From: Escherichia coli
GTDB lineage: Bacteria > Pseudomonadota > Gammaproteobacteria > Enterobacterales > Enterobacteriaceae
DNA length: 64,000 nt
NCBI RefSeq assembly: GCF_001677475.2
Contig: NZ_CP015229.1
Strand: one strand, 5' to 3'
Shown here one piece after another: positions 8,202 through 63,655 of the stretch. Positions within the stretch are counted from its first letter, which is position 1. Each line of letters opens with the position of its first letter. The position numbers were made by a program, and so were the translations under genes. The notes below the pieces were generated by a model that was given only the letters and a program-made list of their open reading frames with translations, was not told the DNA's origin and did no database searches.

Positions 8202-8310
8202 TGCATTATCCTGTTTGCTAAGAGTTTTCACATCAATTTACAGATTAACAGATAAACTCTTTATCAACGGCAATGGAATGGCAGAAATGAGAAGTGAAAC
8301 GGATGGTTAA

Positions 8311-9666
8311 TTATTGCTGGCGTTGCACCCACTCTTTTAGCGCCTGACGTGAAATTTTAATACCACCGTTTTTCAGTTCAGGTGGAAGCGTCAGCCAACG
8401 CACCGGTTGTTGAAAACGGGCCAGCTTATCTTTCACCCATTCGCCAAGATCAACGGTTTGCTGGTCATACTCCACCACCGCTACCGGTCGATGACCAAAC
8501 TCCTTGTCGGCAACGGGAACGATAAACACCTGCAAAACCGCAGGATGTGCAGCAATAACGCGCTCGACTTCTTCTGGCTGAATGCCTTCGCCACCACTGA
8601 AGAACAGATTGTCTAAACGTCCGACAATGGTCAGCTTGCCATTATGCATCTCACCGCGATCGCGCGTGGCGTACCAGCCTTCGTCATTAACCAGTGGAAC
8701 CAGTTGCCCGTTACGCCAGTAACCTTCTGCCATGCTGGCAGCCCGCAGCCACACTTCGTCGTTTACGATTTTCACTTCCCGACCCGGCAGCGGCGAACCG
8801 ACGTCTGCCAGACCGTCGGCTTCTTTCGCACACACCGTGGAGGCAAACTCGGTCAGACCATAGCCGCAAAAGCAACGAATCCCCTGCTCGCGCGCCTGTT
8901 CCGTCAACTCGACCGGAATTGCCGCACCGCCAAGTAACACCGCTTTCAGGGAAACGGAACTGCGGTTAACCAGCAAACGCCAGAGTTGTGTTGGCACCAG
9001 TGAAGCGTGAGTACAGCCTGCCAGCATTTGCTCCAATGGCTGTTTATCACGTACCGTCATCCGCGCACCAGCGTATAACCAGCGCCACATAATTCCCTGA
9101 CCGGAGACGTGAAACAGCGGTAAAGAGAGCAACCAGTCATCGTGCTCGCCAAACGGTATCAGCGATAACACACCTTGCGCACTGGCAAGATGGGCCTGAT
9201 AAGTATGAACAGCGGCTTTCGGCAAACCGGTAGAGCCGGAGGTCAACGTCATTGAGCACAGACGCGTCGGCTGCCACGCAGCGGCATGTGCGCCTTCAAC
9301 CAGCTGAATGTGCAGCGACGTTAACGCCGGAAACGTGTTTTCCCCATCCGGCACCAGCGCAAATTGCAGCGTCAGATTGGGCAGCAATTCTTCAAGCAAC
9401 GGTTGCGGCAGCTGAGGGTTCACGGGCAACACCCGCGCCCCGCATTGCAGTAACGCCAGCCAGGCGAGCAGCGTTTGCGGCGTATTCCACGCCCGCAACA
9501 TCACGCCGCTGCCCTCAACCACACCCTGCGCCGCAAAGCCGGAGGCTAATTCATCGACGCGAGCACAAAGCTCGCGCCAGTTGAGTTGCTCGTCATTAAG
9601 ACGTAAGGCGATGGCTTCTCCCCGCACTTGCCGCCAGTGACGCCACGGCCAGTCAGAGAAGATCAT
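8311..9666 (-). CDS. menE: o-succinylbenzoate--CoA ligase MenE
   Basis: 451-aa ORF with an adenylate-forming enzyme motif (TSGSTGLPK); last gene of the men cluster. Confidence 0.93.
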
Positions 9667-28095: not shown

Positions 28096-30818
28096 TGTTG
28101 TGCCTCCTTGAGATCCTCAAGATGCGCGCCAGCCAGCACCGGAGCAATGCCGGACATACCCATCGGCAAGCCAACCTGCCCTGCCGTCAGCCCTTCGGCG
28201 ATTTCAACCGGCAGCGTGACCGTGTTGCCATCGTAGCTAAAGGAGACACGAGTGCCCGCGTTCACACCCAACTTCGCGGCATCCGCCGGGTTAAGTTTGA
28301 TGTACGGCTGTGGCATACGGCTCTGGAAAACCGGAGCACGCTGTGACAATTCATCGCTGCCAAACAGGTGGTAGTACGGCGCGATACGCCATTTCCCTGC
28401 CTGCGGCTGGAAGCGTGCCGGTACGCTGGTGAAGTAATCCAGACCATTTTCGCTGGTTTCAAACAGACGCACACCTGGATCGCCAAAGCGCAGTTTGCCG
28501 CCCACTTCGTCCTGGAATTTGTTCCACGCCTGCGGGGAGTTCCAGCCCGGTGCCCAGGCAAACGGCACTTGCGAACGGTGCGCGGTCGGCTGGTTGTTAC
28601 CTTCCATCGAGAAGGTGAACATGGTGTCAATATCCTGCGGCTGACGCGGCTCATGAACGCTGATATTGGCGCGCATGGCGGTACGACCGCTGTAACGGTG
28701 CGGTTCACGGGCCAATTTCTGCCCACGAATACGGAATGTCGCATCCGGCGCAGCATCTTTGATACCCGCCAGTTCGGGGATTTTCGCCACAACAGCGTCA
28801 ATCACATGGTCGAGCTGCGTCCAGTCCACTTCACGGCTCAGCAGGGTGCTGTGCAGCGAGTGCAGCCAGCGCCAGCTTTCCAGCATGACAGTTTTGCTGT
28901 CGTAATAAGCCGGATCGTAAACCTGGAAGAAACGTTGGGCGCGGCCTTCGTTGTTGATCACCGTACCGTCGCTTTCAGCAAAGCTGGCAGCAGAAAGTAC
29001 CAGATGGGCGTTTTCCATAATCGCTGTGCGTTGATGGTCAACCACCATCACCAGCGGCGCTTTAGCCAGCGCAGCATTCACGCGGGTAGCGGAAGCGTGA
29101 CGATGCAGATCGTTTTCCAGCACCACCACCGCGTCGGCGCGTCCGGTTTCCAGTTCGGTCAACGCTTCTTCAAGCGAACCGCCCCCCATAATGCCCAGCC
29201 CCATGCTGTTTACAGAGCGAGCAATCATGGTGATACCAACGTCAGCGCCGCGACCTTTCAGGGCTTTTGCGACGTTAGCCGCAGCCTGAATCACTTCAGC
29301 GCTACCGGCGTTTGTCCCGGAGATAATCAACGGTTTCTTCGCACCTGCCAGTGCCTGCACGATGACATCGATTTTGCTTTGCAGCTCAGGTTCGATACCG
29401 TCAACCGCTGGTGCGGAGTTGTCCAGCGCATGAGCGATGGCAAAACCTAAACGCGCCTGATCTTCAACCGGTGCGCGGTAAGTCCACGCCGCGATATCAT
29501 CCAGACGGGTGTCATCAACGTTGGTAACAAACAGCGGATGCTTCGCACGTTGGCCGATGTTGAGGATTGCCGCAATTTGCCAGTCAGCCACTTTCTGTGC
29601 TGCCGCCATTTCGCGCGCTTTACCTTTCACCGCCTGACGCACCGCCAGTGCGACACGAGCGCCAGTCTGAGTAACGTCTTCGCCCAGCACCAGTACCGCA
29701 TCGTAAGATTCGATTTCGCGCAGAGCCGGAGTATAAATGCCGCCTTCACGCAGCACTTTTAGTGCCAGTTGCAGACGTTCCTGCTCACCGTGAGCGATAC
29801 CGGTATAGAAGTTTTCTTCGCCCACCAGCTCACGCAGCGCAAAGTTGCTTTCCACGCTGGCACGCGGAGAACCAATACCGATCACTTTCTTCGACTGACG
29901 CAGAATATCTGCCGCGCCCTGCATTGCCTGTTCGGCGTTGAGGGTAATGAAATCATCGCCACGACGCTGTACTGGCTGACGCGGACGATCTTTCAGGTTG
30001 ACGTAGCCGTAACCGAAACGACCACGGTCGCAGAGGAAGTAGTGGTTTACTGTACCGTTGTAACGGTTTTCGATTCGACGCAGTTCGCCATAACGCTCGC
30101 CGGGGCTGATGTTACAGCCGATGGAACATTGCTGGCAGATGCTCGGCGCAAACTGCATATCCCATTTACGGTTGTAACGCTCGGAGTGCGTTTTGTCGGT
30201 GAATACGCCGGTCGGGCAAATTTCGACCAGGTTACCGGAAAATTCGCTTTCCAGCGTGCCGTCTTCCGGGCGACCGAAGTAGACGTTGTCGTGCGCACCG
30301 TAAACGCCCAGATCTGTACCGTCAGCGTAATCTTTGTAGTAACGCACGCAGCGGTAGCAGGCGATGCAGCGGTTCATTTCGTGAGAGATGAACGGCCCCA
30401 AATCCTGATTACGGTGGGTACGTTTGGTGAAACGGTAGCGACGGAAGCTGTGTCCGGTCATCACGGTCATATCCTGAAGATGACAGTTACCGCCTTCTTC
30501 ACATACCGGACAATCGTGCGGGTGGTTGGTCATTAACCACTCGACCACACTTTCACGGAACTGTTTCGCTTCTTCGTCGTCAATGGAAATAAAGGTGCCA
30601 TCGGAAGCCGGTGTCATACAGGACATCACCAGGCGACCACGCGTGTCTTCCGCGTTTTGGTATTGCTTCACCGCACACTGGCGGCAAGCACCGACGCTTC
30701 CCAGCGCCGGATGCCAGCAAAAGTAAGGAATATCAAGGCCCAGAGACAGACAAGCTTCCAGCAAGTTGTCCGCTCCGTTGACCTCGTATTCTTTGCCGTC
30801 TACATGAATTGTAGCCAT
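28092..30818 (-). CDS. nuoG: NADH:quinone oxidoreductase subunit G
   Basis: Track ORF is 910 aa from ATG 30824; the known protein begins [15 protein letters not shown]... (908 aa), and ATG 30818 is preceded by GGAAG. Multiple Fe-S cysteine clusters. Confidence 0.93.
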
Positions 30819-30870
30819 TAGCATGCTTCCAGTTTTCTCAGTCAGAGACTGAGCGTTAATCGAAATTCGG

Positions 30871-32208
30871 TTACCAGCGCTCTTTCAGCAGGTTCGGCTG
30901 AATCCCATTAATCAAATGGGTATTGCTGAACGGCTGTTTGATTCCCGCCTCAAATTCTTCGCGGAAATATTTGATGGCGCTCTGTAACGGCTCCACTGCA
31001 CCAGGTGCGTGGGCACAGAAAGTTTTACCCGGGCCTAAGAATCGACACAGTTGCTCAAGTGTTTCGATATCGCCCGGCTGACCTTCGCCACGCTCCAGCG
31101 CACGCAGAATTTTCACGCTCCACGGCAGACCGTCGCGGCACGGCGTACACCAGCCGCAGGACTCACGGGCGAAAAACTCTTCCAGGTTACGCACCAGCGA
31201 CACCATGTTGATCTCATGGTCAACCGCCATCGCCAGCGCCGTACCCAGACGGCTGCCCGCTTTACCGATGCTTTCGAATTCCATCGGCAGGTCAAGGTGC
31301 GCTTCGGTCAGGAAGTCGGTGCCCGCGCCGCCTGGCTGCCAGGCTTTGAATTTCAGACCGTCACGCATACCACCGGCGTAATCTTCGAGGATCTCGCGTG
31401 CGGTGGTGCCGAACGGCAGTTCCCACAGACCCGGATTTTTCACCCGACCGGAGAAGCCCATCAGCTTGGTGCCAGCATCTTTACTTTTCGAGATGTTCTT
31501 ATACCACTCCACGCCGTTAGCAAGGATTGCCGGAACGTTACACAGGGTTTCGACGTTGTTGACGCAGGTTGGTTTACCCCATGCGCCGGAGGTTGCCGGG
31601 AAGGGGGGCTTCGAGCGCGGGTTAGCGCGACGCCCTTCCAGGGAGTTGATTAACGCTGTTTCTTCCCCGCAGATGTAGCGCCCTGCCCCGGTATGGACGA
31701 ACAGTTCGAAGTCGAAACCTGTTCCCATAATGTTTTTGCCAAGTAGACCCGCTTCGGTGGCTTCGGCAATGGCACGGCGTAGATTCACTGCCGCTTCGAT
31801 ATATTCGCCGCGCAGGAAGATATAGCCACGGTAAGCTTTCAGCGCAAACGCGGAGATGAGCATGCCTTCCACCAGCAGGTGCGGCAGTTGCTCCATCAGC
31901 AGGCGGTCTTTATAGGTGCCCGGCTCCATTTCATCCGCGTTACACAGCAGGTAACGGATGTTCATGGATTCGTCTTTCGGCATCAGGCTCCACTTCAGAC
32001 CAGTCGAAAAGCCCGCGCCGCCGCGCCCTTTCAGACCAGCGTCTTTTACCTGATTAACGATTTCGTCCGGAGACAGCCCGGTCAGCGCCTTACGCGCGCC
32101 TTCGTAACCGTTTTTGCTGCGATATTCGTCCAGCCACACTGGCTGTTTGTCATCGCGCAGACGCCAGGTCAGCGGATGCGTTTCGGGAGTACGGATAATG
32201 TTTTTCAT
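30871..32208 (-). CDS. nuoF: NADH:quinone oxidoreductase subunit F (NADH/FMN binding)
   Basis: 445-aa ORF matching NuoF. Confidence 0.95.
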
Positions 32209-32705
32209 TTATACCGCTCCAGCAGTTCAGGGATCGCTTCCGGGGTCAGATGTGCGTGAGTATCCTCATCGATCATCATGTTTGGCCCTTTATCACAGTT
32301 CCCCAGGCAGCAAGTTGGCAGCAGCGTAAAGCGACCGTCAAATGTCGTTTGTCCTGGTTTGATGTTCAGCTTTTTCTCGAGCGCCGCCTGAATACCCTGG
32401 TAACCGTTGATATGACAGACCACGCTGTCGCAATAACGGATCACATGGCGGCCTACTGGCTGACGGAAGATCTGGCTATAAAACGTTGCCACGCCTTCGA
32501 CATCGCTCGCCGGAATACCCAGCACATCGGCGATCGCGTGGATCGCGCCATCCGGCACCCAGCCACGCTGCTTCTGAACGATTTTCAGCGCTTCAATGGA
32601 CGCCGCACGCGGGTCTTCGTAGTGGTGCATCTCGTGCTCAATCGCTTCACGCTCTGCCGCACTCAGCTCAAAAGCCTCGGTTTGTGGTTGTTGATTATCG
32701 TGCAT
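32205..32705 (-). CDS. nuoE: NADH:quinone oxidoreductase subunit E ([2Fe-2S])
   Basis: 166-aa ORF; 4-nt overlap with nuoF. Confidence 0.95.
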
Positions 32706-32707
32706 AA

Positions 32708-34498
32708 TTAGCGGTCCACATCTGACATAACAAAATCGATACTGCCCAGATAAACAATCAGGTCAGACACCAGGCTGCCGCGGATCGCCGCCGGAATTTG
32801 CTGCAAATGCGCATAACTCGGCGTACGGATACGGGTGCGATAACTCATGGTGCTACCGTCGCTGGTCAGGTAGTAACTGTTGATCCCCTTGGTCGCCTCA
32901 ATCATCTGGAAAGATTCATTGGCTGGCATCACCGGCCCCCACGACACTTGCAGGAAGTGGGTGATCAGGGTTTCGATATGTTGCAGCGTGCGCTCTTTCG
33001 GCGGCGGCGTAGTCAGCGGATGATCCGCTTTGAACGGGCCTTCCGGCATGTTGTTGAGGCACTGCTCAAGAATGCGCAGACTCTGGCGCAGCTCTTCCAC
33101 TTTCAGCATTACGCGGGTGTAGCAGTCAGAAACACCACCACCCACCGGGATTTCAAAGTCGAAGTTTTCATAGCCAGAATACGGACGCGCCTTACGCACG
33201 TCGAAGTCGATCCCGGTGGCTCGCAGGCCCGCGCCAGTGGTGCCCCACTCCAGTGCCTCTTTCGCGCCATAGGCGGCAACGCCCTGGGAACGACCTTTCA
33301 GAATGGTATTTTGCAGCGCCGCTTTCTCGTAAGACGCCAGACGTTTCGGCATCCAGTCGAGGAACTCACGCAGCAGGCGATCCCAGCCGCGCGGCAGGTC
33401 GTGCGCTACGCCGCCAATACGGAACCACGCCGGGTGCATACGAAAACCCGTGATTGCTTCCACCAGATCGTAAATTTTCTGACGATCGGTAAAGGCGAAG
33501 AACACTGGCGTCATCGCGCCGACGTCCTGAATAAAGGTGGAGATATACAGCAGATGGCTGTTGATGCGGAACAGCTCAGAAAGCATTACGCGAATGACGT
33601 TAACGCGATCCGGCACGGTGATCCCGGCCAGTTTCTCTACAGCCAGCACGTAAGGCATTTCGTTAACGCAGCCGCCGAGGTATTCGATACGGTCGGTATA
33701 CGGAATGTAGCTATGCCAGGACTGGCGCTCGCCCATTTTCTCCGCACCACGGTGGTGGTAGCCGATGTCTGGTACGCAGTCGACAATCTCTTCGCCATCG
33801 AGCTGCAAAACGATACGGAAAGCACCGTGCGCCGACGGGTGGTTCGGACCGAGGTTGAGGAACATGAAGTCCTCGTTTTCGGTGCCGCGCTTCATCCCCC
33901 ACTCTTCCGGTTTGAAGGTCAGGGCTTCCATTTCCAGATCCTGTTTGGCTTTGGTCAGCTCAAACGGCGAGAATTCGGTAGCGCGCGCCGGGTAATCTTT
34001 ACGCAGCGGATGACCTTTCCAGGTTTGCGGCATCATGATGCGGCGCAAATTAGGATGACCGTCGAAAGTAATGCCAAACAGATCCCAGGTTTCACGCTCA
34101 TACCAGTTAGCGTTCGGGAACAGTTTGGTGAAGGTCGGTACGTGCAGGTCGTTTTCTGCCAGCGCCACCTTCAGCATGATGTCGCGGTTACGATCGATAG
34201 AAATCAGATGGTAGAAAACGGAAAAATCCGCGGCAGGTAACCCTTCGCGGTGTGTGCGCAGACGTTCGTCCATGCCGTGTAAGTCAAACAGCATGACGTA
34301 AGGTTTCGGCAGTTTCTTTAAGAAATCGCCAACTTCCAGTAATTGTTCACGCTTGATCCACACAACGGGAACCCCGGTGCGAGTCGCCTGAACAGTAAAG
34401 GCATCCGGCCCAAAACGGTTGCGCAGTTCGCCAATCACCGGATCATCAAGATGATCGCGGGTCTGCCAGGCGGGTTCTTGCGCGGTTAAGTCGGTCAT
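32708..34498 (-). CDS. nuoC: NADH:quinone oxidoreductase fused subunit C/D
   Basis: Track ORF is 600 aa from ATG 34510; the known product begins [30 protein letters not shown]... and ATG 34498 has a GGTGA Shine-Dalgarno, so 34498 is preferred (34510 possible). Confidence 0.92.
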
Positions 34499-34603
34499 AT
34501 TGTTCACCATTGCAAATGGTCCGTGGTGACTGTCGGCGCAGTAAGCTTCGCGAAATAGATTTAGGAATAAGCGAAGAAAAATCCCTTTGCCGACAGGCGC
34601 AAA

Positions 34604-35266
34604 TTAAATCTCGTCAGGTGTACGCAGGTTGGTTACGGCAATGCGTTCACCGCGCTTGCGTTCGCGCTCTGATTGCATATTGGCGCGATAAACGCCCTGA
34701 TCGCCAACCACCCAGGAGAGCGGACGACGTTCTTTGCCGATAGATTCCTGCAACAGCATCAGTGCCTGCATGTACGCTTCAGGACGCGGCGGGCAGCCCG
34801 GGATATACACATCAACCGGGATGAATTTATCGACGCCCTGCACAACGGAATAAATATCGTACATACCACCAGAGTTGGCACAGGCACCCATTGAGATAAC
34901 CCATTTTGGTTCCAGCATCTGGTCATACAGACGCTGAATAACCGGTGCCATTTTGGTAAAGCAGGTTCCTGCAACCACCATCAGGTCAGCCTGACGCGGC
35001 GAAGCACGCAATACTTCTGCGCCAAAACGCGCCACGTCATGCACCGCGGTAAACGAAGTCACCATCTCAACGTAACAGCAGGAAAGACCGAAGTTATACG
35101 GCCAAATTGAGTTTTTACGACCCCAGTTAACCATGTCATTGAGCTTGCCCATAAACACGTTTTTGTTAACTTCTTGCTCCAGAGGGTCGGTTACGATCTC
35201 CTGCTTTTGCAGGGGGTAACGGTCGTTCTCACCGTTGGGATCTATGCGGGTGAGCGTATAATCCAT
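34604..35266 (-). CDS. nuoB: NADH:quinone oxidoreductase subunit B
   Basis: 220-aa ORF matching NuoB. Confidence 0.95.
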
Positions 35267-35281
35267 CTTAATGCCTCGCGG

Positions 35282-35725
35282 TTAGCGTTGACGATTAGCG
35301 ATACTGTTCGTTTCCGGGTTCATACGCTCGCGGCGTGAACGCGCGGGCGTCCAGTCCAGCGCGCCAATACGCACCAGATAAACCAGACCTGCCAGTAACA
35401 CAAAAATAAAAATTGCAGCTTCCACAAAGCCTACCCAGCCGCTTTCGCGGATAGAGGTTGACCATGCGAACAGATACAGTGCTTCAACGTCGAAGATAAC
35501 GAAGAACATGGCCACCAGATAAAACTTGGCGGACAGGCGTAAGCGGGCGGAGCCGACCGAGTCGATACCGGATTCAAACGGCACGTTTTTCGACCTCGCG
35601 CGTGCGCGACCGCCTAAAAACCAACCGCCTACCAGCATCAGGCAACACAGGCCAATGGCAACGATAAGAAAGATAGCGAATGCCCAGTGATGAGCGATGA
35701 CTTCAGTGGATGTTGACATACTCAT
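35282..35725 (-). CDS. nuoA: NADH:quinone oxidoreductase subunit A
   Basis: 147-aa membrane ORF; first gene of the nuo operon. Confidence 0.95.
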
Positions 35726-36355
35726 TGCTTACTCATCAAAAGTAGCGCCAGATTCACTGCTCTTCACGGCAGATGGACGCCACATCGATTCATGGGGAGG
35801 AATAAAAAAAACCTTACAATCACTGTAGAAATTCTTTTATACAGCTAATTGATGTGGTCTTTTACTCCTTTCTATAACCTTTTGTCAACTTTAACAAAAG
35901 TTTCTTCACATTAGTTTACATAATATCAACACCATTAGCATTTAATGCCCTTTCACCCCAGATCCTTGACGACTCCAGGATAATTAGATGTTGTTGAATC
36001 GTGTCCGTTGTGAAGCAATGGAAAAAATACGGGTCTATTTTGACAGGAATTTGTGTCGATTCCTCCCCCCAAAAGAGAGTATTTTCTTGATCTGTGACAC
36101 GCTTTTGTCATTCCATAACAAAAACGCAGCAACAAATTTACGTATTTTTTAACATCATTGTAGCAGGTGATTTTTTTCAGGCGATTATTTGTGCGTTCGG
36201 GACGTGAATCTCTGGCGATTGAAAAATGAACAGTTTTGTGCGTTCTGCACGATACGAGGAAGGCTTTTTACTAAAAAAAAAGCCGCTGGGGTTTAAAATC
36301 CCGCCAGCGGCTCGTTTTTACACTATTGTTCCAGGAATTATCTATCGTCCGTCGA
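35726..36355 (-). promoter_or_regulatory. nuo operon promoter / upstream regulatory region
   Basis: 630-bp AT-rich non-coding stretch between the lrhA stop and the nuoA start; by established knowledge the nuo promoters and several regulator sites are here. Individual sites not resolved by eye. Confidence 0.55.
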
Positions 36356-37297
<942 letters not shown>

Positions 37298-37728
37298 TTA
37301 TCACTTACTGGCGGCTCATACTGAGCTGGTTAATGCTGTGCACACACAAACAAGCAATTCCATTTGTAATGTGCCTCCCTGGCAGTTTCATCCGGAACCC
37401 GGACGAAAGTAAAAATGCATATGAGTTGCACTAAAAAAGCGACTCACATTGTTCCGTTATAATGCCTGAAGTAGATCACAGAATATATCTTCAGGGATCG
37501 CATATCTATTAAGTTACTCACTCTTTTCTATTTATGACATGCGCGTGTTTGTATAAATGTAAATGTGAGTCCTTGTTCCACTCTCGTGCAGCATCGCTGG
37601 TCATACGCGAACACGTACAAACAGCAATGGTGAGGCGGCATCAAGAGCAGGGATCCGTCATTTATCCAAGCATTTTACCCCAAAAACCTTTTATTTATAA
37701 GGGTCATTGCGAATTATCTGATGCAAAG

Positions 37729-37756
37729 TTATGTTATGTTATGTTATGTTATGTTA
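37729..37756. repeat. Pentanucleotide microsatellite (ATGTT)x5 in the lrhA-alaA intergenic region
   Basis: Read directly from the sequence: agtt atgtt atgtt atgtt atgtt atgtt agg. Confidence 0.9.
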
Positions 37757-38228
37757 GGCAAAGTAATCTCCTATTATTAATAAGCACAACAAAACCTTTT
37801 TGAATATTAAATAATAATTAATTAGCACCATCCTCATTCATTAATACTGCTTAACAATAGTTTCACACCTTCCCCCCATTGCGACACCTCGGAAATCATC
37901 ACGCTGTTAAACTCTCCGTAATGAGTAAATATCATCATCGCGATTCATTAGTGAATTCTTAAACGAGGCATTTTCACACAATTATCTCACAGATAAAAAA
38001 ACCACACTTACAATAAATAATCAGAATAATTCACTATATAACATTACTTATTAAGCATATACACCTCATTATTTTACCATTATTAAGTTATTAACAGCAC
38101 AATCGAGCCTTCCCCTCTGGCAAAATCTTATTCTGCAGACCTTCAAAACACCGTCCTGGGGGAGTACATTGTTCTAAGCTGACTTCCACGGCAGGGAGTG
38201 GCGATAACAGCAAAAAAGGTCAAGATTC

Positions 38229-39446
38229 ATGTCCCCCATTGAAAAATCCAGCAAATTAGAGAATGTCTGTTATGACATCCGTGGTCCGGTGCTGAAAGAA
38301 GCAAAACGCCTGGAAGAAGAAGGTAACAAGGTACTGAAACTGAACATCGGCAACCCAGCCCCGTTCGGTTTTGACGCGCCAGATGAAATCCTCGTTGACG
38401 TGATACGCAACCTGCCTACCGCTCAAGGGTATTGCGATTCCAAAGGTCTTTACTCCGCGCGTAAAGCCATCATGCAGCACTACCAGGCTCGTGGCATGCG
38501 TGATGTTACCGTGGAAGATATTTACATCGGCAATGGTGTATCGGAGCTTATCGTTCAGGCAATGCAGGCATTGCTGAACAGCGGGGACGAAATGTTGGTT
38601 CCTGCACCAGATTACCCACTATGGACCGCGGCGGTTTCGCTTTCCAGCGGTAAAGCGGTGCATTATCTTTGCGATGAATCCTCTGACTGGTTCCCGGACC
38701 TCGATGATATTCGCGCTAAAATTACGCCTCGTACGCGTGGAATCGTTATTATCAACCCAAATAACCCAACCGGCGCGGTATATTCCAAAGAGCTTTTAAT
38801 GGAGATTGTGGAGATTGCACGTCAGCATAATCTCATTATCTTCGCCGATGAAATTTATGACAAAATTCTCTACGACGACGCTGAGCATCACTCAATTGCG
38901 CCGCTGGCACCTGACCTGCTGACCATTACCTTTAACGGACTGTCGAAAACGTACCGCGTTGCAGGCTTCCGTCAGGGGTGGATGGTGTTGAACGGGCCGA
39001 AAAAACACGCCAAAGGCTACATCGAAGGTCTGGAAATGCTGGCTTCAATGCGCCTGTGTGCTAACGTTCCTGCGCAACACGCCATTCAGACCGCGCTGGG
39101 TGGTTATCAGAGCATCAGTGAATTTATTACCCCTGGCGGTCGTCTTTATGAGCAGCGTAACCGCGCGTGGGAATTGATCAACGATATTCCGGGCGTTTCC
39201 TGCGTGAAACCTCGTGGTGCGCTGTATATGTTCCCGAAAATCGACGCCAAACGCTTTAACATTCACGACGATCAGAAAATGGTGCTGGATTTCCTGTTGC
39301 AGGAAAAAGTTCTGTTGGTGCAAGGGACGGCATTCAACTGGCCGTGGCCGGATCACTTCCGCATTGTCACGCTACCGCGTGTCGATGATATCGAGCTGTC
39401 TTTGAGCAAGTTCGCGCGTTTCCTTTCTGGTTATCATCAGCTGTAA
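38229..39446 (+). CDS. alaA: Glutamate-pyruvate aminotransferase AlaA (PLP-dependent)
   Basis: 405-aa ORF MSPIEKSSKLENVCYDIRGPVLKEAKRLEEEGNKVLKLNIGNPAPFGF... matching AlaA (YfbQ). Confidence 0.94.
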   Translation: MSPIEKSSKLENVCYDIRGPVLKEAKRLEEEGNKVLKLNIGNPAPFGFDAPDEILVDVIRNLPTAQGYCDSKGLYSARKAIMQHYQARGMRDVTVEDIYIGNGVSELIVQAMQALLNSGDEMLVPAPDYPLWTAAVSLSSGKAVHYLCDESSDWFPDLDDIRAKITPRTRGIVIINPNNPTGAVYSKELLMEIVEIARQHNLIIFADEIYDKILYDDAEHHSIAPLAPDLLTITFNGLSKTYRVAGFRQGWMVLNGPKKHAKGYIEGLEMLASMRLCANVPAQHAIQTALGGYQSISEFITPGGRLYEQRNRAWELINDIPGVSCVKPRGALYMFPKIDAKRFNIHDDQKMVLDFLLQEKVLLVQGTAFNWPWPDHFRIVTLPRVDDIELSLSKFARFLSGYHQL

Positions 39447-39529
39447 TCTTAATTTCACTGCCGGAGATTGCATCCGGCAGTGTTATCCCGCCACAATGAC
39501 CTGATGATGTCATCATACGTAAGGTCACT

Positions 39530-40129
39530 ATGAAACAGAGCCATTTTTTTGCCCATCTCTCCCGCCTGAAACTCATTAACCGCTGGCCGCTAATGCGCAA
39601 CGTGCGGACGGAAAATGTGTCCGAACACAGTTTGCAAGTAGCGATGGTCGCCCATGCGCTGGCAGCTATCAAAAATCGTAAATTTGGCGGTAATGTCAAC
39701 GCCGAACGTATCGCTTTACTGGCGATGTACCACGATGCTTCAGAAGTGCTCACCGGCGATCTCCCTACTCCGGTGAAATACTTCAATTCGCAAATCGCTC
39801 AGGAATACAAGGCTATTGAAAAAATCGCTCAGCAAAAACTGGTCGATATGGTTCCGGAAGAGCTGCGGGATATCTTTGCGCCGTTAATTGACGAGCATGC
39901 ATATAGCGATGAAGAAAAATCGCTGGTGAAACAGGCAGATGCACTGTGTGCATATCTGAAATGTCTGGAAGAACTCGCGGCCGGAAATAATGAATTCTTG
40001 CTGGCAAAAACGCGACTGGAAGCGACGCTTGAAGCGCGTCGCAGCCAGGAGATGGACTACTTCATGGAAGTATTTGTTCCCAGCTTCCATCTTTCGCTCG
40101 ATGAGATTAGCCAGGATTCACCGCTGTAA
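39530..40129 (+). CDS. yfbR: HD-domain 5'-deoxynucleotidase YfbR
   Basis: 199-aa [48 protein letters not shown]... matching YfbR. Confidence 0.93.
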
Positions 40130-40141
40130 GCAGCTGGAGTC

Positions 40142-40181
40142 TGCGTCGCATCAGGCAATAAGCGCCGGATGCGACATCAGG
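40142..40181. repeat. REP (repetitive extragenic palindromic) element between yfbR and yfbS
   Basis: tgcgtcgcatcaggcaataagcgccggatgcgacatcaggc shows the gcatcagg/ccggatgcg motifs of E. coli REP units in inverted arrangement. Confidence 0.7.
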
Positions 40182-40187
40182 CTCTTG

Positions 40188-42020
40188 TCAAAACGGAAAC
40201 AGCATCGGGATCATCACCACACAAACTGCCATCACGATAATGGTGAACGGTACCCCCAACTTCACAAAGTCACTGAAGCTGTAATTTCCCGGACCTAAAA
40301 CCAGTGTATTAACAGGTGAAGAAACCGGTGTCATAAAGGCGGCAGATGCTGCCATCGCCACGACCATCGCGAATGGATAAGGCGACACACCCATCGTTTT
40401 GGCAGCAGCCAGCGCAATCGGAGCCATCAACACCGCCGTCGCGGTATTAGAGATAAATAGCCCAATAACCGCCGACAAGACAAACAAACACCCCAGCATC
40501 ATATGTGGCCCATAACCGCCGCCAATGTCCATCAGCCCTTTCACCGCCAGCGCGACACCTCCCGTTTTCTGTAATGCCACAGCAAACGGCATCATCCCAA
40601 CGATCAAAATAATGCTCGGCCAGTGAATGGATTTATAGGCGCTTTCAGCATCTATACAGCGGAATTTCCCCATCAGCAGGCAGGCGATGATAGCGGCAAC
40701 AGGATTAGGAATTTCATCTGTCAGCATTAACGCCACCATTAGCACCAGACAGAAAATGGCATGGGGTGCCTGGCTGTGCGCGGGCGATGCTTCACTCACC
40801 TCTTCCGGTAAGTTCAGCGCTACGAAGTCGCGGCCCTGTTTGGCCAGCATACCGATCAGTTTCCAGTTACCAACAACCAGGATGATATCGCCCAGCAGCA
40901 GAGGCTCATCCGCCAGCGAACCTTCCAGCGCCACGCCATTGCGCTTTAGCCCCACCACATTCAGTCCGTAGCGGGTACGAAAACCAATTTCGCGCACCGA
41001 TTTACCAATAAGTTCTGACTCAGGAATTAATGAAATCTCTGCCATGCCCACATCAAGGGCCTGGTCAGAAAAATACTCGCCGCGCAGTACCATCGGCTCC
41101 AGCAATTGCTCACTACAAAATTGCCGGAGATCGACATCAGCCGCAGACATATCAATAAGCAAAACGTCACGCGCGCGAAATTCAGAAACCCCATTAACGT
41201 TCACGATAACGCGACGAAAACGCCGCCAGCGTTCAACACCGATGACGTTAGCGCCATAACGCTCACGTAATTTGAGATCGTCCAGCCGTTGACCAATCAT
41301 TGGCGATCCGGGGCGAATAGCCAGACGTCGCGCACGCCCGGTCAGTCGATATTCACGGATAAGATCGCGAAAGGTTCGACGCGTCCAGCCTTCGCGCTGC
41401 GGGGTCTGGGTATCCCCTTTCAGCATGAAACGCATCACTAACATATACAAAATACCCAGCACCAGCACGACCAGGCCAATAGGTGTTACGCTAAAGAAAC
41501 TGAAGCCGTGATAGCCTTCACGCAGCAATTCACTGTTGACTACCAGGTTCGGCGGCGTCGCCACCAGCGTCATCATGCCGCTAATCAGCCCGGCAAAACT
41601 TAACGGCATCATCAGACGCGACGGCGAAGTTTGCATACGCATGGCAACGCTTAACACCACGGGAATAAAGATAGCGACAACGCCGGTTGAACTCATAAAC
41701 GCGCCAAGCCCCGCAACGGTCAGCATCAACAAAACCAACATTTTGATTTCACTGTTGCCCGCCACTTTGACCAGCCATGTTCCCATTACGGTGGCAACAC
41801 CGGTACGGACCAAACCATCGCCAATAATAAACAAGGCGGCAATCAGGACAACGTTAGGATCAGAAAAGCCGGAAAATACTTCGGGGACCGTCAGCGTTCC
41901 GCTTAATGCAAACGCGACAATAACAAACAAAGCGACCGCATCCATACGCACTCTGCCCGTCGCAAACAAGACGATGGCAACGGCCAGTAATGAAAGAACC
42001 CAAATCAATTCACCGTTCAC
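40188..42020 (-). CDS. yfbS: Putative anion/dicarboxylate-family transporter YfbS (two TrkA-C domains)
   Basis: 610-aa ORF with hydrophobic N- and C-terminal halves and a central soluble region; matches YfbS in length. Confidence 0.88.
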
Positions 42021-42063
42021 AACTTATCCTTGTTAATTGAGGGGGATGGACTTGATTCTGCCA

Positions 42064-42088
42064 TAAAAAAGCCCCGACGAGACGGGGC
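42064..42088 (-). terminator. Rho-independent terminator downstream of yfbT
   Basis: Minus-strand reading agccccgtctcgtcggggct followed by TTTTTT. Confidence 0.7.
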
Positions 42089-42107
42089 TAAATCATGATC
42101 AGGTGTT

Positions 42108-42758
42108 TCACTGAATAATAACATCGCCATTTGGCTGTTTGGTCACAGTAATTTGCTCCAGACTGTGGAGGACCAAATCGACCTCATTCAGGCGCGGGGT
42201 ATCTGCCGGAGCGTTAACCGCAATGACATGGCAACCCGCCGCCAGGCCAGAAAGCACGCCAGCGGGAGCATCTTCCACCACCACACACTCCTGCGGCGCA
42301 AGCCCCAGCAGCTGCGCGCCTAACAGATACGCATCAGGTTCTGGTTTTCCGCGCTTCACTCGCTCAGCGGTCACAAACACCTCTGGCGCGGGAAGCCCCG
42401 CTATTTTATGGCGCGCTCGCGCTACCGGCATGGAGCCAGAAGTCACAATGGCCCACGGAATACCTGCTTTATTCAAATGATTGAGTAAGGCGATTGCCCC
42501 GGGAAGCGCGGTAATACCCTCGGTTTCCGTGGCCTCGATTTGCTCCAGACGCGTAAACTCGGCGGCAATATCAGCCTCGGATTTGCCCGCCATAAAATGG
42601 CGCAGAGAGGTGATCGCCTGTTTACCGTGAATGAAAGCCAGCACCTCTTCCGGCGCTAACCCATGACGTCTGGCCCAGTTGCTCCACGCCCGCTCTACCG
42701 CAGGCAGGGAATCCACCAGCGTTCCATCAAGATCAAACAGAAAACCTTTGCACCGCAC
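42108..42758 (-). CDS. yfbT: HAD-superfamily hexitol/sugar phosphatase YfbT (HxpA)
   Basis: 216-aa ORF with the HAD motif FDLDGTL near the N-terminus. Confidence 0.9.
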   Translation of the reverse strand: MRCKGFLFDLDGTLVDSLPAVERAWSNWARRHGLAPEEVLAFIHGKQAITSLRHFMAGKSEADIAAEFTRLEQIEATETEGITALPGAIALLNHLNKAGIPWAIVTSGSMPVARARHKIAGLPAPEVFVTAERVKRGKPEPDAYLLGAQLLGLAPQECVVVEDAPAGVLSGLAAGCHVIAVNAPADTPRLNEVDLVLHSLEQITVTKQPNGDVIIQ

Positions 42759-42768
42759 GCGGGCCTCC

Positions 42769-43344
<576 letters not shown>

Positions 43345-43800
43345 TTACAAATCATCAAGGAAAGTTTTATCCAGTTGTTTGAAGGCACGCTTAAGCGTGT
43401 CAGCTAATGCCTGGTAATCAGGCTTGCCTTCAACGGGTGCCAACACCTGTCCAGACTCCTGCAATTTACCGCGAACTTCATAAAACCAGTTGAGGATAGC
43501 AGGGGGTAATGGCGTTACAGAACGCTTGCCCAGCCACCACAATCCCTGCATGGGTAAACTTAAGGCGAACAGCGCTGTGGCAACTGCTGGCCCAAGCTGA
43601 CCGCCCAGGGCAATCTGCCAGCAGAGAGTAAATACGGCGATCGGCGGCATAAAACGGATCGCATAACGCGTCATCTTGATAACGCGATTTTCGACAAAGA
43701 CCGGGGCAAGGCGTTTTTCCAGCGGCCACGTCTTTGAGTAATGCTGTCCCCGGCGAAACAAGCTAAAAAAATTAACAGAACGATTATCCGGCGTTGACAT
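43345..43800 (-). CDS. yfbV: UPF0208 inner membrane protein YfbV
   Basis: 151-aa ORF with two hydrophobic segments; divergent from ackA as in K-12. Confidence 0.9.
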
Positions 43801-44137
43801 GCTTCACCTCAACTTCACATATAAAGATTCAAAAATTTGTGCAAATTCACAACTCAGCGGGACAACGTTCAAAACATTTTGTCTTCCATACCCACTATCA
43901 GGTATCCTTTAGCAGCCTGAAGGCCTAAGTAGTACATATTCATTGAGTCGTCAAATTCATATACATTATGCCATTGGCTGAAAATTACGCAAAATGGCAT
44001 AGACTCAAGATATTTCTTCCATCATGCAAAAAAAATTTGCAGTGCATGATGTTAATCATAAATGTCGGTGTCATCATGCGCTACGCTCTATGGCTCCCTG
44101 ACGTTTTTTTAGCCACGTATCAATTATAGGTACTTCC

Positions 44138-45340
44138 ATGTCGAGTAAGTTAGTACTGGTTCTGAACTGCGGTAGTTCTTCACTGAAATTTGCCATCATC
44201 GATGCAGTAAATGGTGAAGAGTACCTTTCTGGTTTAGCCGAATGTTTCCACCTGCCCGAAGCACGTATCAAATGGAAAATGGACGGCAATAAACAGGAAG
44301 CGGCTTTAGGTGCAGGCGCCGCTCACAGCGAAGCGCTCAACTTTATCGTTAATACTATTCTGGCACAAAAACCAGAACTGTCTGCGCAGCTGACTGCTAT
44401 CGGTCACCGTATCGTACACGGCGGCGAAAAGTATACCAGCTCCGTAGTGATCGATGAGTCTGTTATTCAGGGTATCAAAGATGCAGCTTCTTTTGCACCG
44501 CTGCACAACCCGGCTCACCTGATCGGTATCGAAGAAGCTCTGAAATCTTTCCCACAGCTGAAAGACAAAAACGTTGCTGTATTTGACACCGCGTTCCACC
44601 AGACTATGCCGGAAGAGTCTTACCTCTACGCCCTGCCGTACAACCTGTACAAAGAGCACGGCATCCGTCGTTACGGCGCGCACGGCACCAGCCACTTCTA
44701 TGTAACCCAGGAAGCGGCAAAAATGCTGAACAAACCGGTAGAAGAACTGAACATCATCACCTGCCACCTGGGCAACGGTGGTTCCGTTTCTGCTATCCGC
44801 AACGGTAAATGCGTTGACACCTCTATGGGCCTGACCCCGCTGGAAGGTCTGGTCATGGGTACCCGTTCTGGTGATATCGATCCGGCGATCATCTTCCACC
44901 TGCACGACACCCTGGGCATGAGCGTTGACGCAATCAACAAACTGCTGACCAAAGAGTCTGGCCTGCTGGGTCTGACCGAAGTGACCAGCGACTGCCGCTA
45001 TGTTGAAGACAACTACGCGACGAAAGAAGACGCGAAGCGCGCAATGGACGTTTACTGCCACCGCCTGGCGAAATACATCGGTGCCTACACTGCGCTGATG
45101 GATGGTCGTCTGGACGCTGTTGTATTCACCGGTGGTATCGGTGAAAATGCCGCGATGGTTCGTGAACTGTCTCTGGGCAAACTGGGCGTGCTGGGCTTTG
45201 AAGTTGATCATGAACGCAACCTGGCTGCACGTTTCGGCAAATCTGGTTTCATCAACAAAGAAGGTACCCGTCCTGCGGTGGTTATCCCAACCAACGAAGA
45301 ACTGGTTATCGCGCAAGACGCGAGCCGCCTGACTGCCTGA
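44138..45340 (+). CDS. ackA: Acetate kinase
   Basis: 400-aa [53 protein letters not shown]... matching AckA. Confidence 0.96.
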
Positions 45341-45414
45341 TTTCACACCGCCAGCTCAGCTGGCGGTGCTGTTTTGTAACCCGCCAAATCGGCGGTAACG
45401 AAAGAGGATAAACC

Positions 45415-47559
45415 GTGTCCCGTATTATTATGCTGATCCCTACCGGAACCAGCGTCGGTCTGACCAGCGTCAGCCTTGGCGTGATCCGTGCAATGGAACG
45501 CAAAGGCGTTCGTCTGAGCGTTTTCAAACCTATCGCTCAGCCGCGTACCGGTGGCGATGCGCCCGATCAGACTACGACTATCGTGCGTGCGAACTCTTCC
45601 ACCACGACGGCCGCTGAACCGCTGAAAATGAGCTACGTTGAAGGTCTGCTTTCCAGCAATCAGAAAGATGTGCTGATGGAAGAGATCGTCGCAAACTACC
45701 ACGCTAACACCAAAGACGCTGAAGTCGTTCTGGTTGAAGGTCTGGTCCCGACACGTAAGCACCAGTTTGCCCAGTCTCTGAACTACGAAATCGCTAAAAC
45801 GCTGAATGCGGAAATCGTCTTCGTTATGTCTCAGGGCACTGACACCCCGGAACAGCTGAAAGAGCGTATCGAACTGACCCGCAACAGCTTCGGCGGTGCC
45901 AAAAACACCAACATCACCGGCGTTATCGTTAACAAACTGAATGCACCGGTTGATGAACAGGGTCGTACTCGCCCGGATCTGTCCGAGATTTTCGACGACT
46001 CTTCCAAAGCTAAAGTAAACAATGTTGATCCGGCGAAGCTGCAAGAATCCAGCCCGCTGCCGGTTCTCGGCGCTGTGCCGTGGAGCTTTGACCTGATCGC
46101 GACTCGTGCGATCGATATGGCTCGCCACCTGAATGCGACCATCATCAACGAAGGCGACATCAATACTCGCCGCGTTAAATCCGTCACTTTCTGCGCACGC
46201 AGCATTCCGCACATGCTGGAGCACTTCCGTGCCGGTTCTCTGCTGGTGACTTCCGCAGACCGCCCTGACGTGCTGGTTGCCGCTTGCCTGGCTGCCATGA
46301 ACGGCGTAGAAATCGCTGCCCTGCTGCTGACTGGCGGCTACGAAATGGACGCGCGCATTTCTAAACTGTGCGAACGTGCTTTCGCTACCGGCCTGCCGGT
46401 ATTTATGGTGAACACCAATACCTGGCAGACTTCTCTGAGCCTGCAGAGCTTCAACCTGGAAGTTCCGGTTGACGATCACGAGCGTATCGAGAAAGTTCAG
46501 GAATACGTTGCTAACTACATCAACGCTGACTGGATCGATTCTCTGACTGCCACTTCTGAGCGCAGCCGTCGTCTGTCTCCGCCAGCGTTCCGTTATCAGC
46601 TGACTGAACTTGCGCGCAAAGCGGGCAAACGTATTGTTCTGCCGGAAGGTGACGAACCGCGTACCGTTAAAGCAGCCGCTATCTGTGCTGAACGTGGTAT
46701 CGCAACTTGCGTACTGCTGGGTAATCCGGCAGAGATCAACCGTGTTGCAGCGTCTCAGGGTGTAGAACTGGGTGCAGGCATTGAAATCGTTGATCCAGAA
46801 GTGGTTCGCGAAAGCTATGTTGGTCGTCTGGTCGAACTGCGTAAGAACAAAGGCATGACCGAAACCGTTGCCCGCGAACAGCTGGAAGATAACGTGGTTC
46901 TCGGTACGCTGATGCTGGAACAGGACGAAGTTGATGGTCTGGTTTCCGGTGCTGTTCACACCACCGCAAACACCATCCGTCCGCCGCTGCAGCTGATCAA
47001 AACGGCTCCGGGCAGCTCCCTGGTATCTTCCGTGTTCTTCATGCTGCTGCCAGAACAGGTTTACGTTTACGGTGACTGTGCGATCAACCCGGATCCGACC
47101 GCAGAACAGCTGGCAGAAATCGCGATTCAGTCCGCTGATTCCGCTGCGGCCTTCGGTATCGAACCGCGCGTTGCTATGCTCTCCTACTCCACCGGGACTT
47201 CTGGTGCTGGTAGCGACGTAGAAAAAGTTCGCGAAGCAACTCGTCTGGCGCAGGAAAAACGTCCTGACCTGATGATCGACGGTCCGCTGCAGTACGACGC
47301 TGCGGTAATGGCTGACGTTGCGAAATCCAAAGCGCCGAACTCTCCGGTTGCAGGTCGCGCTACCGTGTTCATCTTCCCGGATCTGAACACCGGTAACACC
47401 ACCTACAAAGCGGTACAGCGTTCTGCCGACCTGATCTCCATCGGGCCGATGCTGCAGGGTATGCGCAAGCCGGTTAACGACCTGTCCCGTGGCGCACTGG
47501 TTGACGATATCGTCTACACCATCGCGCTGACTGCGATTCAGTCTGCACAGCAGCAGTAA
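45415..47559 (+). CDS. pta: Phosphate acetyltransferase
   Basis: 714-aa ORF (start read as GTG) [42 protein letters not shown]... matching Pta. Confidence 0.96.
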
Positions 47560-61701: not shown

Positions 61702-62364
61702 TTAATTCGGCGTATAGCCCATTACCACGCCACTTAAGCCAGAAAGTTGCTTCAACTCACCCAGCGAACCTTTCAGCTTATCTTTCGAGGCATCCGGCCC
61801 AACCAGAATACGGGTAATTTTACCCTGCACTGGCGTGGATGGCGACGTATAAACCCGATAACCGGCACCGCGCAGCTTACCGACAATCTCATTCACTTTA
61901 TCGGCATTTTTCAGCGCACCCAGTTGCACAACATAGGCTTTACCCGTCGGTGCAGCTTTTTCTTCCACGACCGGCTTCGGTTCTGGCTTCGGCGCAGGTG
62001 GTGCTTCAACCTTTGGTTTAGGCGGCTCCACCGGTTTCGGCTTCGGTGGGGCGACCGGTGCAGGTTCCGGTTCAAACTCGGTGTTATTGGCTGCAATAGT
62101 GGCCGGATCGAGCGACGGTGCTGCGGCATCACCTGCCCGCACCTCTTCCGCTGCGCCTTCCGGCGGCTGCGTCGGCAACGCCTGGGTGGCGGCTGGCATC
62201 ATATCAGGCTCATCGCGATCGCCCGCTTTTGGAACCAGCGGGATAGCCGCAAACTCATCCTGATAATGTTTTTTCTGCCCGTCCAGAAGCCCTGGAAGTA
62301 CAATCACCCCCAGCGCCACCAGCACGATCGTGCCCACTAACCGATTCTGAAACTTACTTGCCAC
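61702..62364 (-). CDS. dedD: Cell division protein DedD (SPOR domain)
   Basis: Track ORF begins at a TTG (62382); the known 220-aa protein begins (M)ASKFQNRLVGTIVLVALGVIVLPG... from GTG 62364, which overlaps the folC 3' end by 11 nt. Pro/Lys-rich linker and C-terminal SPOR region. Confidence 0.9.
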   Translation of the reverse strand: MASKFQNRLVGTIVLVALGVIVLPGLLDGQKKHYQDEFAAIPLVPKAGDRDEPDMMPAATQALPTQPPEGAAEEVRAGDAAAPSLDPATIAANNTEFEPEPAPVAPPKPKPVEPPKPKVEAPPAPKPEPKPVVEEKAAPTGKAYVVQLGALKNADKVNEIVGKLRGAGYRVYTSPSTPVQGKITRILVGPDASKDKLKGSLGELKQLSGLSGVVMGYTPN

Positions 62365-63655
62365 CGCTTCTCCTCGCGTCAATCACTTCCATGACATGTG
62401 CGACCGTGTGGAAAGAACCACACACCAGCACGGTGTCTTCCGCTTTAGCGTCCGCCATTGCGGCATCCCATGCCTGCGCAACGCTATCAAATGATTTGCC
62501 GTTACCCAAATGCTCAAGCAGTTGTTCTGCCGTGGCACCGCGCGGCCCTTCCAGTGGCGCACAATACCAGTCATCAACCACGCTTTTCAACCAGGCCAGA
62601 GTTCCGGCAATATCTTTATCATGTAGCATACCGATAACCGCCAGCACGCGCCCGTTTTTCGGTAGCGCTTTCATACGCCCGGTGAGATATTCCGCCGCAT
62701 GTGGATTATGCGCGACATCAAAAATAACGCGAGGCGACTCGCTCACAATCTGGAAACGTCCCGGCAAAATTGCGCTGGCAATCCCGTCGCGAATGGCAGT
62801 TTCACTGACCTCCAGCCCGCTGGCACGCAGTGCCGCCAGCGCCGTTGCGGCATTCGGTTGTGGGACAAGCGGCAACGGCAGGTTTTCCAGCGTGCCGTGA
62901 GCATCGCTAAACGCCCAGTCATGATCGGTGACGGAATAGTTCCACTCAACGCCCCGACGTTGTAACAGTGCACCTTTTTCCTGCGCCACATCAGCAATGG
63001 TAGAAGGCATTTCCGGCTCACCGACAATTGCCGGTTTTTCGCTGCGAAAGATGCCTGCTTTCTCGCGACCAATGCTTTCGCGATCTGGCCCCAGCCAGTC
63101 AGTATGATCCAGCGCAATGCTGGTCACCACAGCCACATCAGCATCGACAATATTGGTGGCATCCAGACGACCACCCAGCCCCACTTCCAGAATTACCACA
63201 TCAAGTTGCGCCTGTTTAAACAGCCACAGAGCCGACAACGTGCCGTATTCAAAATAGGTCAGGGAAATATCACCGCGTGCCGATTCAATCTCAGCAAAAG
63301 AGGCGGTGTGAGCCGATTCAATCTCAGCAAAAGAGGCGGTGTGAGCCGATTCCGGCAATTCCTGGCCCTGCACACGAACGCGCTCGGTATAACGCACCAG
63401 ATGAGGCGAACTGTAGACGCCCACTTTGTACCCTGCCACCATCAGAATCGACTCCAGCGTACGGCAGGTGGTGCCTTTGCCATTCGTACCCGCAACGGTA
63501 AACACAAATGGCGCTGGTTTCAGAACGCCAAGACGCGCCGCGACCTGGCTCACGCGCTCAAGGCCGAGATCGATAGTTTTACTGTGCAGGTTTTCCAGAT
63601 AAGAAAGCCACGAAGCCAAAGGCGACGCGGCTTGAGGTGTGCGTTTGATAATCAT
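62354..63655 (-). CDS. folC: Dihydrofolate synthase / folylpolyglutamate synthase FolC, carrying an 11-aa in-frame tandem duplication
   Basis: 433-aa ORF MIIKRTPQAASPLASWLSYLENLHSKTIDLGLERV... matching FolC except for a duplicated SAHTASFAEIE block; K-12 FolC is 422 aa from memory. Confidence 0.93.
   Translation of the reverse strand: MIIKRTPQAASPLASWLSYLENLHSKTIDLGLERVSQVAARLGVLKPAPFVFTVAGTNGKGTTCRTLESILMVAGYKVGVYSSPHLVRYTERVRVQGQELPESAHTASFAEIESAHTASFAEIESARGDISLTYFEYGTLSALWLFKQAQLDVVILEVGLGGRLDATNIVDADVAVVTSIALDHTDWLGPDRESIGREKAGIFRSEKPAIVGEPEMPSTIADVAQEKGALLQRRGVEWNYSVTDHDWAFSDAHGTLENLPLPLVPQPNAATALAALRASGLEVSETAIRDGIASAILPGRFQIVSESPRVIFDVAHNPHAAEYLTGRMKALPKNGRVLAVIGMLHDKDIAGTLAWLKSVVDDWYCAPLEGPRGATAEQLLEHLGNGKSFDSVAQAWDAAMADAKAEDTVLVCGSFHTVAHVMEVIDARRSGGK
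63279..63344. repeat. Perfect 33-bp direct tandem duplication (2 copies) inside folC
   Basis: The unit gccgattcaatctcagcaaaagaggcggtgtga occurs twice back to back in the sequence; boundaries are approximate to within 1-2 nt because of flanking microhomology (gccgattc). Confidence 0.9.

Follow-up and report, generated by a model that had tools for sequence, protein, structure and literature searches.

The spacer between the divergent lrhA and alaA genes of this Escherichia coli genome contains a real, non-random and recurrently length-variable pentanucleotide microsatellite, which lies 63 bp upstream of the inferred lrhA transcription start; a regulatory consequence of its length is plausible in light of the comparative evidence assembled below. 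Within the window, that is, the whole 64-kb stretch of DNA that was analysed, Tandem Repeats Finder delineates a period-5 tract at 37728-37756 (5.8 copies, 100% matches, score 58), and a direct read of these positions gives GTTATGTTATGTTATGTTATGTTATGTTA, with ATGTT repeated five times at 37731-37755. Both agree with the five perfect ATGTT units described in an earlier note on this DNA; the limits offered there (37729-37756) mark a genuine tract, with a left edge one base short of its full extent. When read on the lrhA sense strand, the tract is TAAC(ATAAC)5. The spacer itself is, as had been stated, AT-rich and 934 bp long, with a GC content of 37.7% versus 51.9% for the whole window, and its flanking genes are named lrhA and alaA by RefSeq annotation in the orthologous E. 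coli regions. The LrhA protein encoded in the window differs from that of K-12 at 2 residues. The features relevant to the argument are collected in Table 1.

Table 1. Features of the lrhA-alaA region, in window coordinates
Feature	Position	Strand	Remarks
Perfect pentanucleotide microsatellite	37728..37756		Plus-strand (GTTAT)5+GTTA; -63 to -91 from inferred lrhA start
lrhA CDS	36356..37294	-	LysR-type regulator, 312 aa, intact
Inferred lrhA transcription start site	37665	-	An A; 371 nt counted back from ATG
lrhA -10 hexamer TAAAAT	37672..37677	-	Conserved in most enterobacterial lrhA loci compared
Weak -35-like hexamer TTATAA	37695..37700	-	17-bp spacer to -10
Candidate RcsB/RcsAB-like box TCAGATAATTCGCA	37708..37721	-	-56 to -43; conserved across genera
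AT-rich upstream block	37757..37869	-	Conserved across genera (alignment, 16 species)
alaA CDS	38229..39446	+	405 aa, divergent neighbour

The pentamer tract is the sole perfect period-5 repeat of at least 3 copies in the 64-kb window. Repeats of at least 4 copies arose in none of 300 window simulations under an order-2 Markov model and in none of 5000 simulations with the composition of the spacer. As no simulation reached 4 copies, a chance origin of the tract is excluded, and its characterization as an unusual short tandem repeat is well founded.

The copy number of the repeat was surveyed by querying 5,426 complete E. coli genomes with synthetic alleles using BLAST and reading off the identity bands and matched lengths, with units counted as full units before the final GTTA. 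The overwhelmingly prevalent state is that of 2 units, which is found in ~5,170-5,200 genomes (~95%) including K-12. A single unit is present in ~120-140 genomes (~2.5%), among them some O157:H7, O55:H7 DEC5B, O103:H2 12009, O45:H2 and swine ETEC, and 3 units in ~60-77 genomes (~1.3%), many of which belong to ST131, while 4 units were recovered from 4 genomes, namely 2014C-3338, WP9-S17-ESBL-11, BCE049 and 98194. None of the 5,426 genomes has 0 units or at least 5 units, the 0- and 6-unit queries having split into two pieces and being informative solely on the absence of a full-length match. A variable-gap scan of metagenomes found 4 contigs, all four with 2 units. Outside the window, 5 units were encountered in one draft assembly, L106 (GCA_026697845.1), on an unrelated haplotype. 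The 5-unit allele of the window, with 3 extra units (+15 bp) over the common 2-unit state, is therefore the longest observed and stands at the extreme of the range. On the whole, the variability between strains that the earlier note had anticipated is confirmed, with whole-unit alleles from 1 to 5. The haplotype on which the window's allele resides is itself distinctive: the closest of the 5,426 complete genomes is 98.7% identical over the 16 kb tested (30000-46000), and at least 38 SNPs separate the window from other sequences in the 2.4 kb around lrhA (36356-38788), in a gene order that is E. coli-like.

An alignment of 42 sequences spanning lrhA, the spacer and 560 bp of alaA, which was clustered after masking the repeat, revealed that all alleles are perfect multiples of the 5-bp unit and that unit number varies between sequences separated by 0-1 SNP in the 2.4-kb flank in at least 8 clusters. 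These group K-12 (2 units) with strain 219 (1) and IAL7250 (3); L088 and L094 (2) with ECCTRSRTH03 (1); L098 (2) with A8 (3) and L106 (5); L107 (2) with O103:H2 12009 and UTAK-2 (both 1); O157:H7 PA11 (2) with 3-5-1 (1), along with O55:H7 RM12579 (2), DEC5B (1) and DEC5E (3); NR329 (3) with WP9-S17 (4); the ST131 genome 2017_APHA (3) with 98194 (4); and L085 (2) with BCE049 (4). Likewise, the ST131-type spacer, otherwise 100% identical, occurs with 3 units in at least 48 genomes and with 2 units in ~400, the latter figure being extrapolated from a synthetic 2-unit ST131 spacer that matched at 100% in the first five of 60 evenly spaced rows. Given that unit number differs where the flanks show 0-1 SNP in at least 8 haplotype groups, slippage must be recurrent, and the restriction to whole-unit alleles implies that slipped-strand mispairing outpaces point substitution in the flanks. 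The mechanism suggested by the earlier note, slipped-strand mispairing, is thus supported by both the whole-unit steps and the recurrent change on near-identical flanks. The overall rarity of variants shows that the process is much slower than at classical contingency loci. In L106 (tract region 8258-8298) the 5-unit allele arose independently, on a haplotype 1 SNP from 2- and 3-unit sequences; the lrhA gene of this assembly (8727-9644) carries a frameshift near its end that truncates LrhA to 305 aa.

A 371-nt 5' UTR has been reported for the lrhA mRNA (PMC10578931), and such a long leader agrees with a transcript of ~1.5 kb (PMC4152368) and with the in vitro transcription of the spacer upstream of lrhA (PMC3141248). 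This published length places the 5' UTR at 37295-37665. The start site at ~37665, which derives from one published statement and the motif mapping of this analysis, lies 7 nt downstream of a conserved -10 hexamer. In a comparison set of 80 lrhA loci from other Enterobacteriaceae the arrangement CTTATAA-N17-TAA[A/G]AT is kept in most cases, and this conservation, taken together with its fit to the 371-nt 5' UTR, suggests that it represents the lrhA promoter. The -35-like TTATAA agrees with the TTGACA consensus at 3 of 6 positions, and this weakness accounts for the promoter having been missed by a consensus scan.

Relative to the inferred start, the tract spans -63 to -91 in the window and -63 to -76 in K-12, so that copy number is not only variable but varies within about 100 bp of a promoter. 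The repeat is situated outside the segment between the -35 (37700-37695) and the -10 (37677-37672), as it begins only at 37728, and hence the change in promoter spacing envisaged by the earlier note does not apply to the core promoter. From its position at -63 to -91, the tract can alter only the distance and helical phase of upstream elements. An effect on DNA curvature, which had also been proposed, is unlikely on geometric rather than computed grounds, given that a 5-bp period corresponds to half a helical turn and successive bends would cancel. Between the tract and the -35 lies TCAGATAATTCGCA, whose counterpart in Salmonella and Kosakonia is TAAGATTATTCGTA; it appears to resemble the consensus of the RcsB/RcsAB box. 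Such a candidate box at 37708-37721 fits the control of lrhA that has been reported for the Rcs system.

On the far side of the tract, the AT-rich block contains conserved strings including TTAATAATA, TTAATTAATTATTATTTAATATT and GTGTGAAAnTATTGTTAAG, and might serve as a binding platform for H-NS, Lrp, OmpR or LrhA. As the tract stands between this block and the lrhA promoter, its length sets the distance between the two. In ~33 loci from at least 10 enterobacterial genera, 97-99 bp separate the TTATTT anchor of the block from CTTATAA, although the sequence between these anchors is poorly conserved. The distance amounts to 98 bp in K-12 versus 113 bp in the window, and it is the 2-unit state that gives a distance equal to that of the other enterobacterial genera. 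This constancy of the interval from the block to the -35 suggests that spacing is constrained in the lrhA promoter.

Several published observations bear on this upstream DNA. Transposon or IS insertions in the spacer lead to overexpression of lrhA, or of its homologue pigU in Serratia (PMC10810281), H-NS represses lrhA (PMC12968389), and Lrp directly activates it (bioRxiv 276808). ChIP-chip shows an OmpR signal between lrhA and alaA, at spacer-level resolution, in E. coli as well as in Salmonella (PMC3945435), and a binding motif for LrhA itself was derived in a 2026 NAR paper. IS5 and IS10 insertions in the spacer have been reported for laboratory strains, and we observed an IS1 in the same spacer of a natural isolate, H270 (E. 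coli U15A, NZ_CP035720.1 2559330-2561025). SNPs are abundant in the central 380 bp of the spacer and almost absent from the lrhA leader and from the 130 bp that adjoin alaA.

A single conserved ATAACA occupies the position of the tract in Citrobacter, Salmonella and Pseudescherichia, and the tandem form is found in Escherichia and, with 2 units, in one Citrobacter. The single element in related genera suggests that the microsatellite grew from a conserved promoter-upstream element. In the explanation that we favor, tandem duplication of an ATAACA-containing element just upstream of the lrhA promoter would have given rise to a slippage-prone microsatellite, which would now separate the AT-rich block from the core promoter and the RcsB-like box. 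Each added unit would shift the upstream block 5 bp away and turn it by approximately half a helical turn; in the window, with its +15 bp, the block would lie ~150 degrees out of phase and 5 nm farther off. The altered spacing and phase would change the action of upstream-bound factors, of which H-NS, Lrp, OmpR and LrhA are implicated by published work, with the level of lrhA being raised or lowered rather than switched on or off, and selection on spacing would keep alleles other than that of 2 units rare. That tract length tunes lrhA transcription through upstream control is, for this chain taken as a whole, a proposition that we regard as evenly poised. It is favored by the dephasing that +15 bp would entail, by the 97-99 bp spacing in at least 10 genera, and by the fact that upstream DNA affects lrhA. 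Speaking against it, there is no excess of the phase-preserving +10 bp alleles, and the allele spectrum fits stepwise mutation.

The latter points, together with the persistence of variants in large clones, make neutrality a serious rival. The polymorphism might reflect occasional slippage with unit number having no measurable effect on lrhA or alaA, and the 2-unit state might prevail as the ancestral one owing to the low mutation rate of a short tract, an account that we hold to be quite possible, though short of probable. Consistent with it, the frequencies are stepwise, with 1 and 3 units far commoner than 4 or 5, and variants persist in sizeable clones (3 units in at least 48 ST131-type genomes, 1 unit in many STEC). 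Furthermore, a spacing of 100-103 bp is found, and hence tolerated, in Silvania, Kosakonia, Phytobacter and Pseudescherichia. The length from which rapid mutation is seen in classical contingency repeats is well above 2.8 copies, and the rarity of variants may accordingly be due to a low mutation rate of the 2.8-copy tract and not to selection. No phenotype of the pentamer is reported in the literature searched. Within the same literature, the coverage of which is incomplete, we found neither a description of the pentamer nor its use as a typing marker; where the spacer comes up in work on Dam methylation, sigma-S profiling, the evolution of syntrophic co-cultures, isobutanol tolerance and the Std fimbriae of Salmonella, the repeat goes unmentioned. 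A purely neutral tract is harder to reconcile with the maintenance of the 97-99 bp spacing despite sequence turnover between the anchors, with its placement in the -60 to -90 zone that is typical for upstream activators and repressors, and with the known control of lrhA by upstream DNA (PMC10810281, PMC12968389, bioRxiv 276808).

A further, improbable alternative holds that the units act as half-sites for a regulator recognizing direct repeats with a period of ~10 bp, such as a response regulator of the OmpR family, with copy number altering the number of bound molecules. Operators of that family consist of tandem half-sites at a spacing of 10-11 bp. The core AACAT recurs every 5 bp in the tract, and the string xTAACATAAx appears to resemble OmpR half-sites such as GTTACATATT and GAAACATCTA. 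The conservation of a single ATAACA at this position in Citrobacter, Salmonella and Pseudescherichia and the OmpR ChIP signal in the E. coli and Salmonella spacers (PMC3945435) would be compatible with this; however, a short AT-rich match is likely to arise by chance similarity, the resolution of ChIP-chip is too coarse to put OmpR on the tract, and in the Enterobacter group ATAACA is replaced by TTATCA.

It is scarcely credible that the repeat controls alaA or serves as a classical on/off phase switch through -35/-10 spacing. The divergent genes do share one spacer, and a consensus scan picks up ATAACA within the tract as a -35-like match, with a GATAAT 18 bp away; yet unit number leaves this spacing untouched, the edge of the tract nearer to lrhA being fixed, and promoter-like sites number 2 versus 4.0 +/- 1.8 in shuffled sequence. 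Moreover, the lrhA -35/-10 pair lies downstream of the tract, and the conserved part on the alaA side is the last 130 bp before that gene. The ATG of alaA is 473 bp away from the tract, and the sole proposed alaA promoter ~250 bp. These distances also make alaA, which the earlier note had named as a possible target, an unlikely one. The sole alaA promoter proposed for K-12, TTAAGA-17-TATAAC, comes from a SELEX paper; the window (37990-38030) has TAAATA-17-TATAAC in its place, with two private SNPs in the putative -35.

Other readings of the tract were also considered and rejected. No Rfam family was detected in 36300-39500 at E <= 1, which leaves the tract without a match that would mark it as a structured RNA. 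As single-stranded DNA it folds more weakly than shuffled sequences on both strands (z +0.9 and +1.2), which disfavors a hairpin, cruciform or terminator. An 89-aa ORF running across the tract (37534-37803) changes frame with unit number and lacks conservation both in E. albertii and in L004, which, with an LrhA 95% identical, is the Escherichia locus of greatest divergence among those recovered; its product is absent from the record, and the ORF was accordingly judged spurious. The candidate promoter inside the tract is a weak 9/12 match, in a region with fewer promoter-like sites than shuffled sequence.

Two further tandem repeats of the window deserve mention. Within the lrhA coding sequence, an imperfect 9-bp repeat of two copies at 37194-37211 (GCGGCAGCT GCGGCAGCA) encodes the Ala29-34 run. 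One study describes a microsatellite within the coding part of lrhA as a hotspot of frequent mutation and the source of heritable hypermotile variants (PMC12456302); the Ala34_Val35insAlaAlaAla change in LrhA reported by another (PMC7817135) maps to this run. Like the pentamer, the Ala-run repeat resides in the same gene and changes by tandem-repeat slippage; in contrast to the pentamer, which as part of the promoter region would at most change expression, it alters or inactivates the protein. One might go further and regard lrhA as a rare contingency-like gene of E. coli with two slippage hotspots, the Ala run and the promoter pentamer, the latter acting as a heritable rheostat, although we consider this unlikely. 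Were it true, gains and losses of units would reset the level of LrhA, and along with it motility, type 1 fimbriae, RpoS and CRISPR-Cas activity, among otherwise identical clones, including within clones such as ST131 and O157:H7, and long alleles (5.8 copies) would be the more mutable. The second repeat is a perfect 33-bp tandem duplication of 2.2 copies at 63279-63352 in folC (62354-63655, minus strand). It is in-frame, with the 11-aa sequence AHTASFAEIES occurring twice in a FolC of 433 aa, and is found in none of 5,425 complete E. coli genomes, all of which span 298 bp versus 331 bp in the window; it thus represents a second private tandem expansion in the window.

The potential interest of the promoter pentamer stems from the fact that LrhA heads the hierarchy governing motility and fimbriae; LrhA also acts on RpoS, on virulence genes in enterohaemorrhagic E. 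coli and, as recent papers indicate, on CRISPR-Cas immunity. Unexplained differences in lrhA expression between strains have been noted in published work, and a length polymorphism 63 bp upstream of the inferred start is a candidate for part of this strain-to-strain variation. Major clones are divided by this polymorphism: ST131 has members with 2 units and members with 3, and O157:H7/O55:H7 ranges from 1 to 3. To our knowledge, regulatory variation by simple repeats is considered uncommon in E. coli. A demonstrated effect on expression would add usefully to repeat-based regulation in this species; if there is no effect, the tract would still be of minor use in typing and would illustrate the birth of a microsatellite out of a conserved promoter element.

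Comparison with known repeat systems helps to place the lrhA tract. With the VNTRs used for MLVA of E. coli it shares a copy number that is polymorphic among strains (alleles of 1 to 5 units), even within clones, but it differs from them in its few alleles and low diversity, 95% of genomes sharing one allele. The TA repeats of Haemophilus influenzae hifA/hifB and the homopolymers of Neisseria porA/opc cause on/off switching through the length of the -35/-10 spacer. The lrhA tract is likewise a simple repeat in promoter DNA whose length changes by slippage; however, it lies outside the -35/-10 spacer, which renders the spacer-length mechanism inapplicable. Contingency loci more generally are characterized by long tracts and high-frequency switching within a culture. 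The lrhA repeat conforms to this class in having a unit of 1-8 bp in a promoter (5 bp, at -63 to -91) and in its recurrent change between close isolates (at least 8 groups; 2 and 3 units in the ST131 type), but not in tract length, which is typically at least 6 tetra- or pentanucleotide units, the common allele having 2.8 copies and the 5.8 copies of the window being borderline. The TAAA tract of Neisseria meningitidis nadA is the textbook case of a promoter-upstream simple repeat that tunes expression, and such repeats offer the closest functional analogy to the lrhA tract. It too differs from the lrhA tract, along with the other contingency loci, in that the usual E. coli allele has 2.8 copies and variants make up ~4-5% of genomes. 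Nevertheless, both are short-unit repeats that stand on the upstream side of the -35 and separate the core promoter from a regulatory region farther up, and both vary in unit number between close strains by slippage; graded expression through altered spacing or phasing, rather than a frameshift, would be the expected outcome for lrhA as well.
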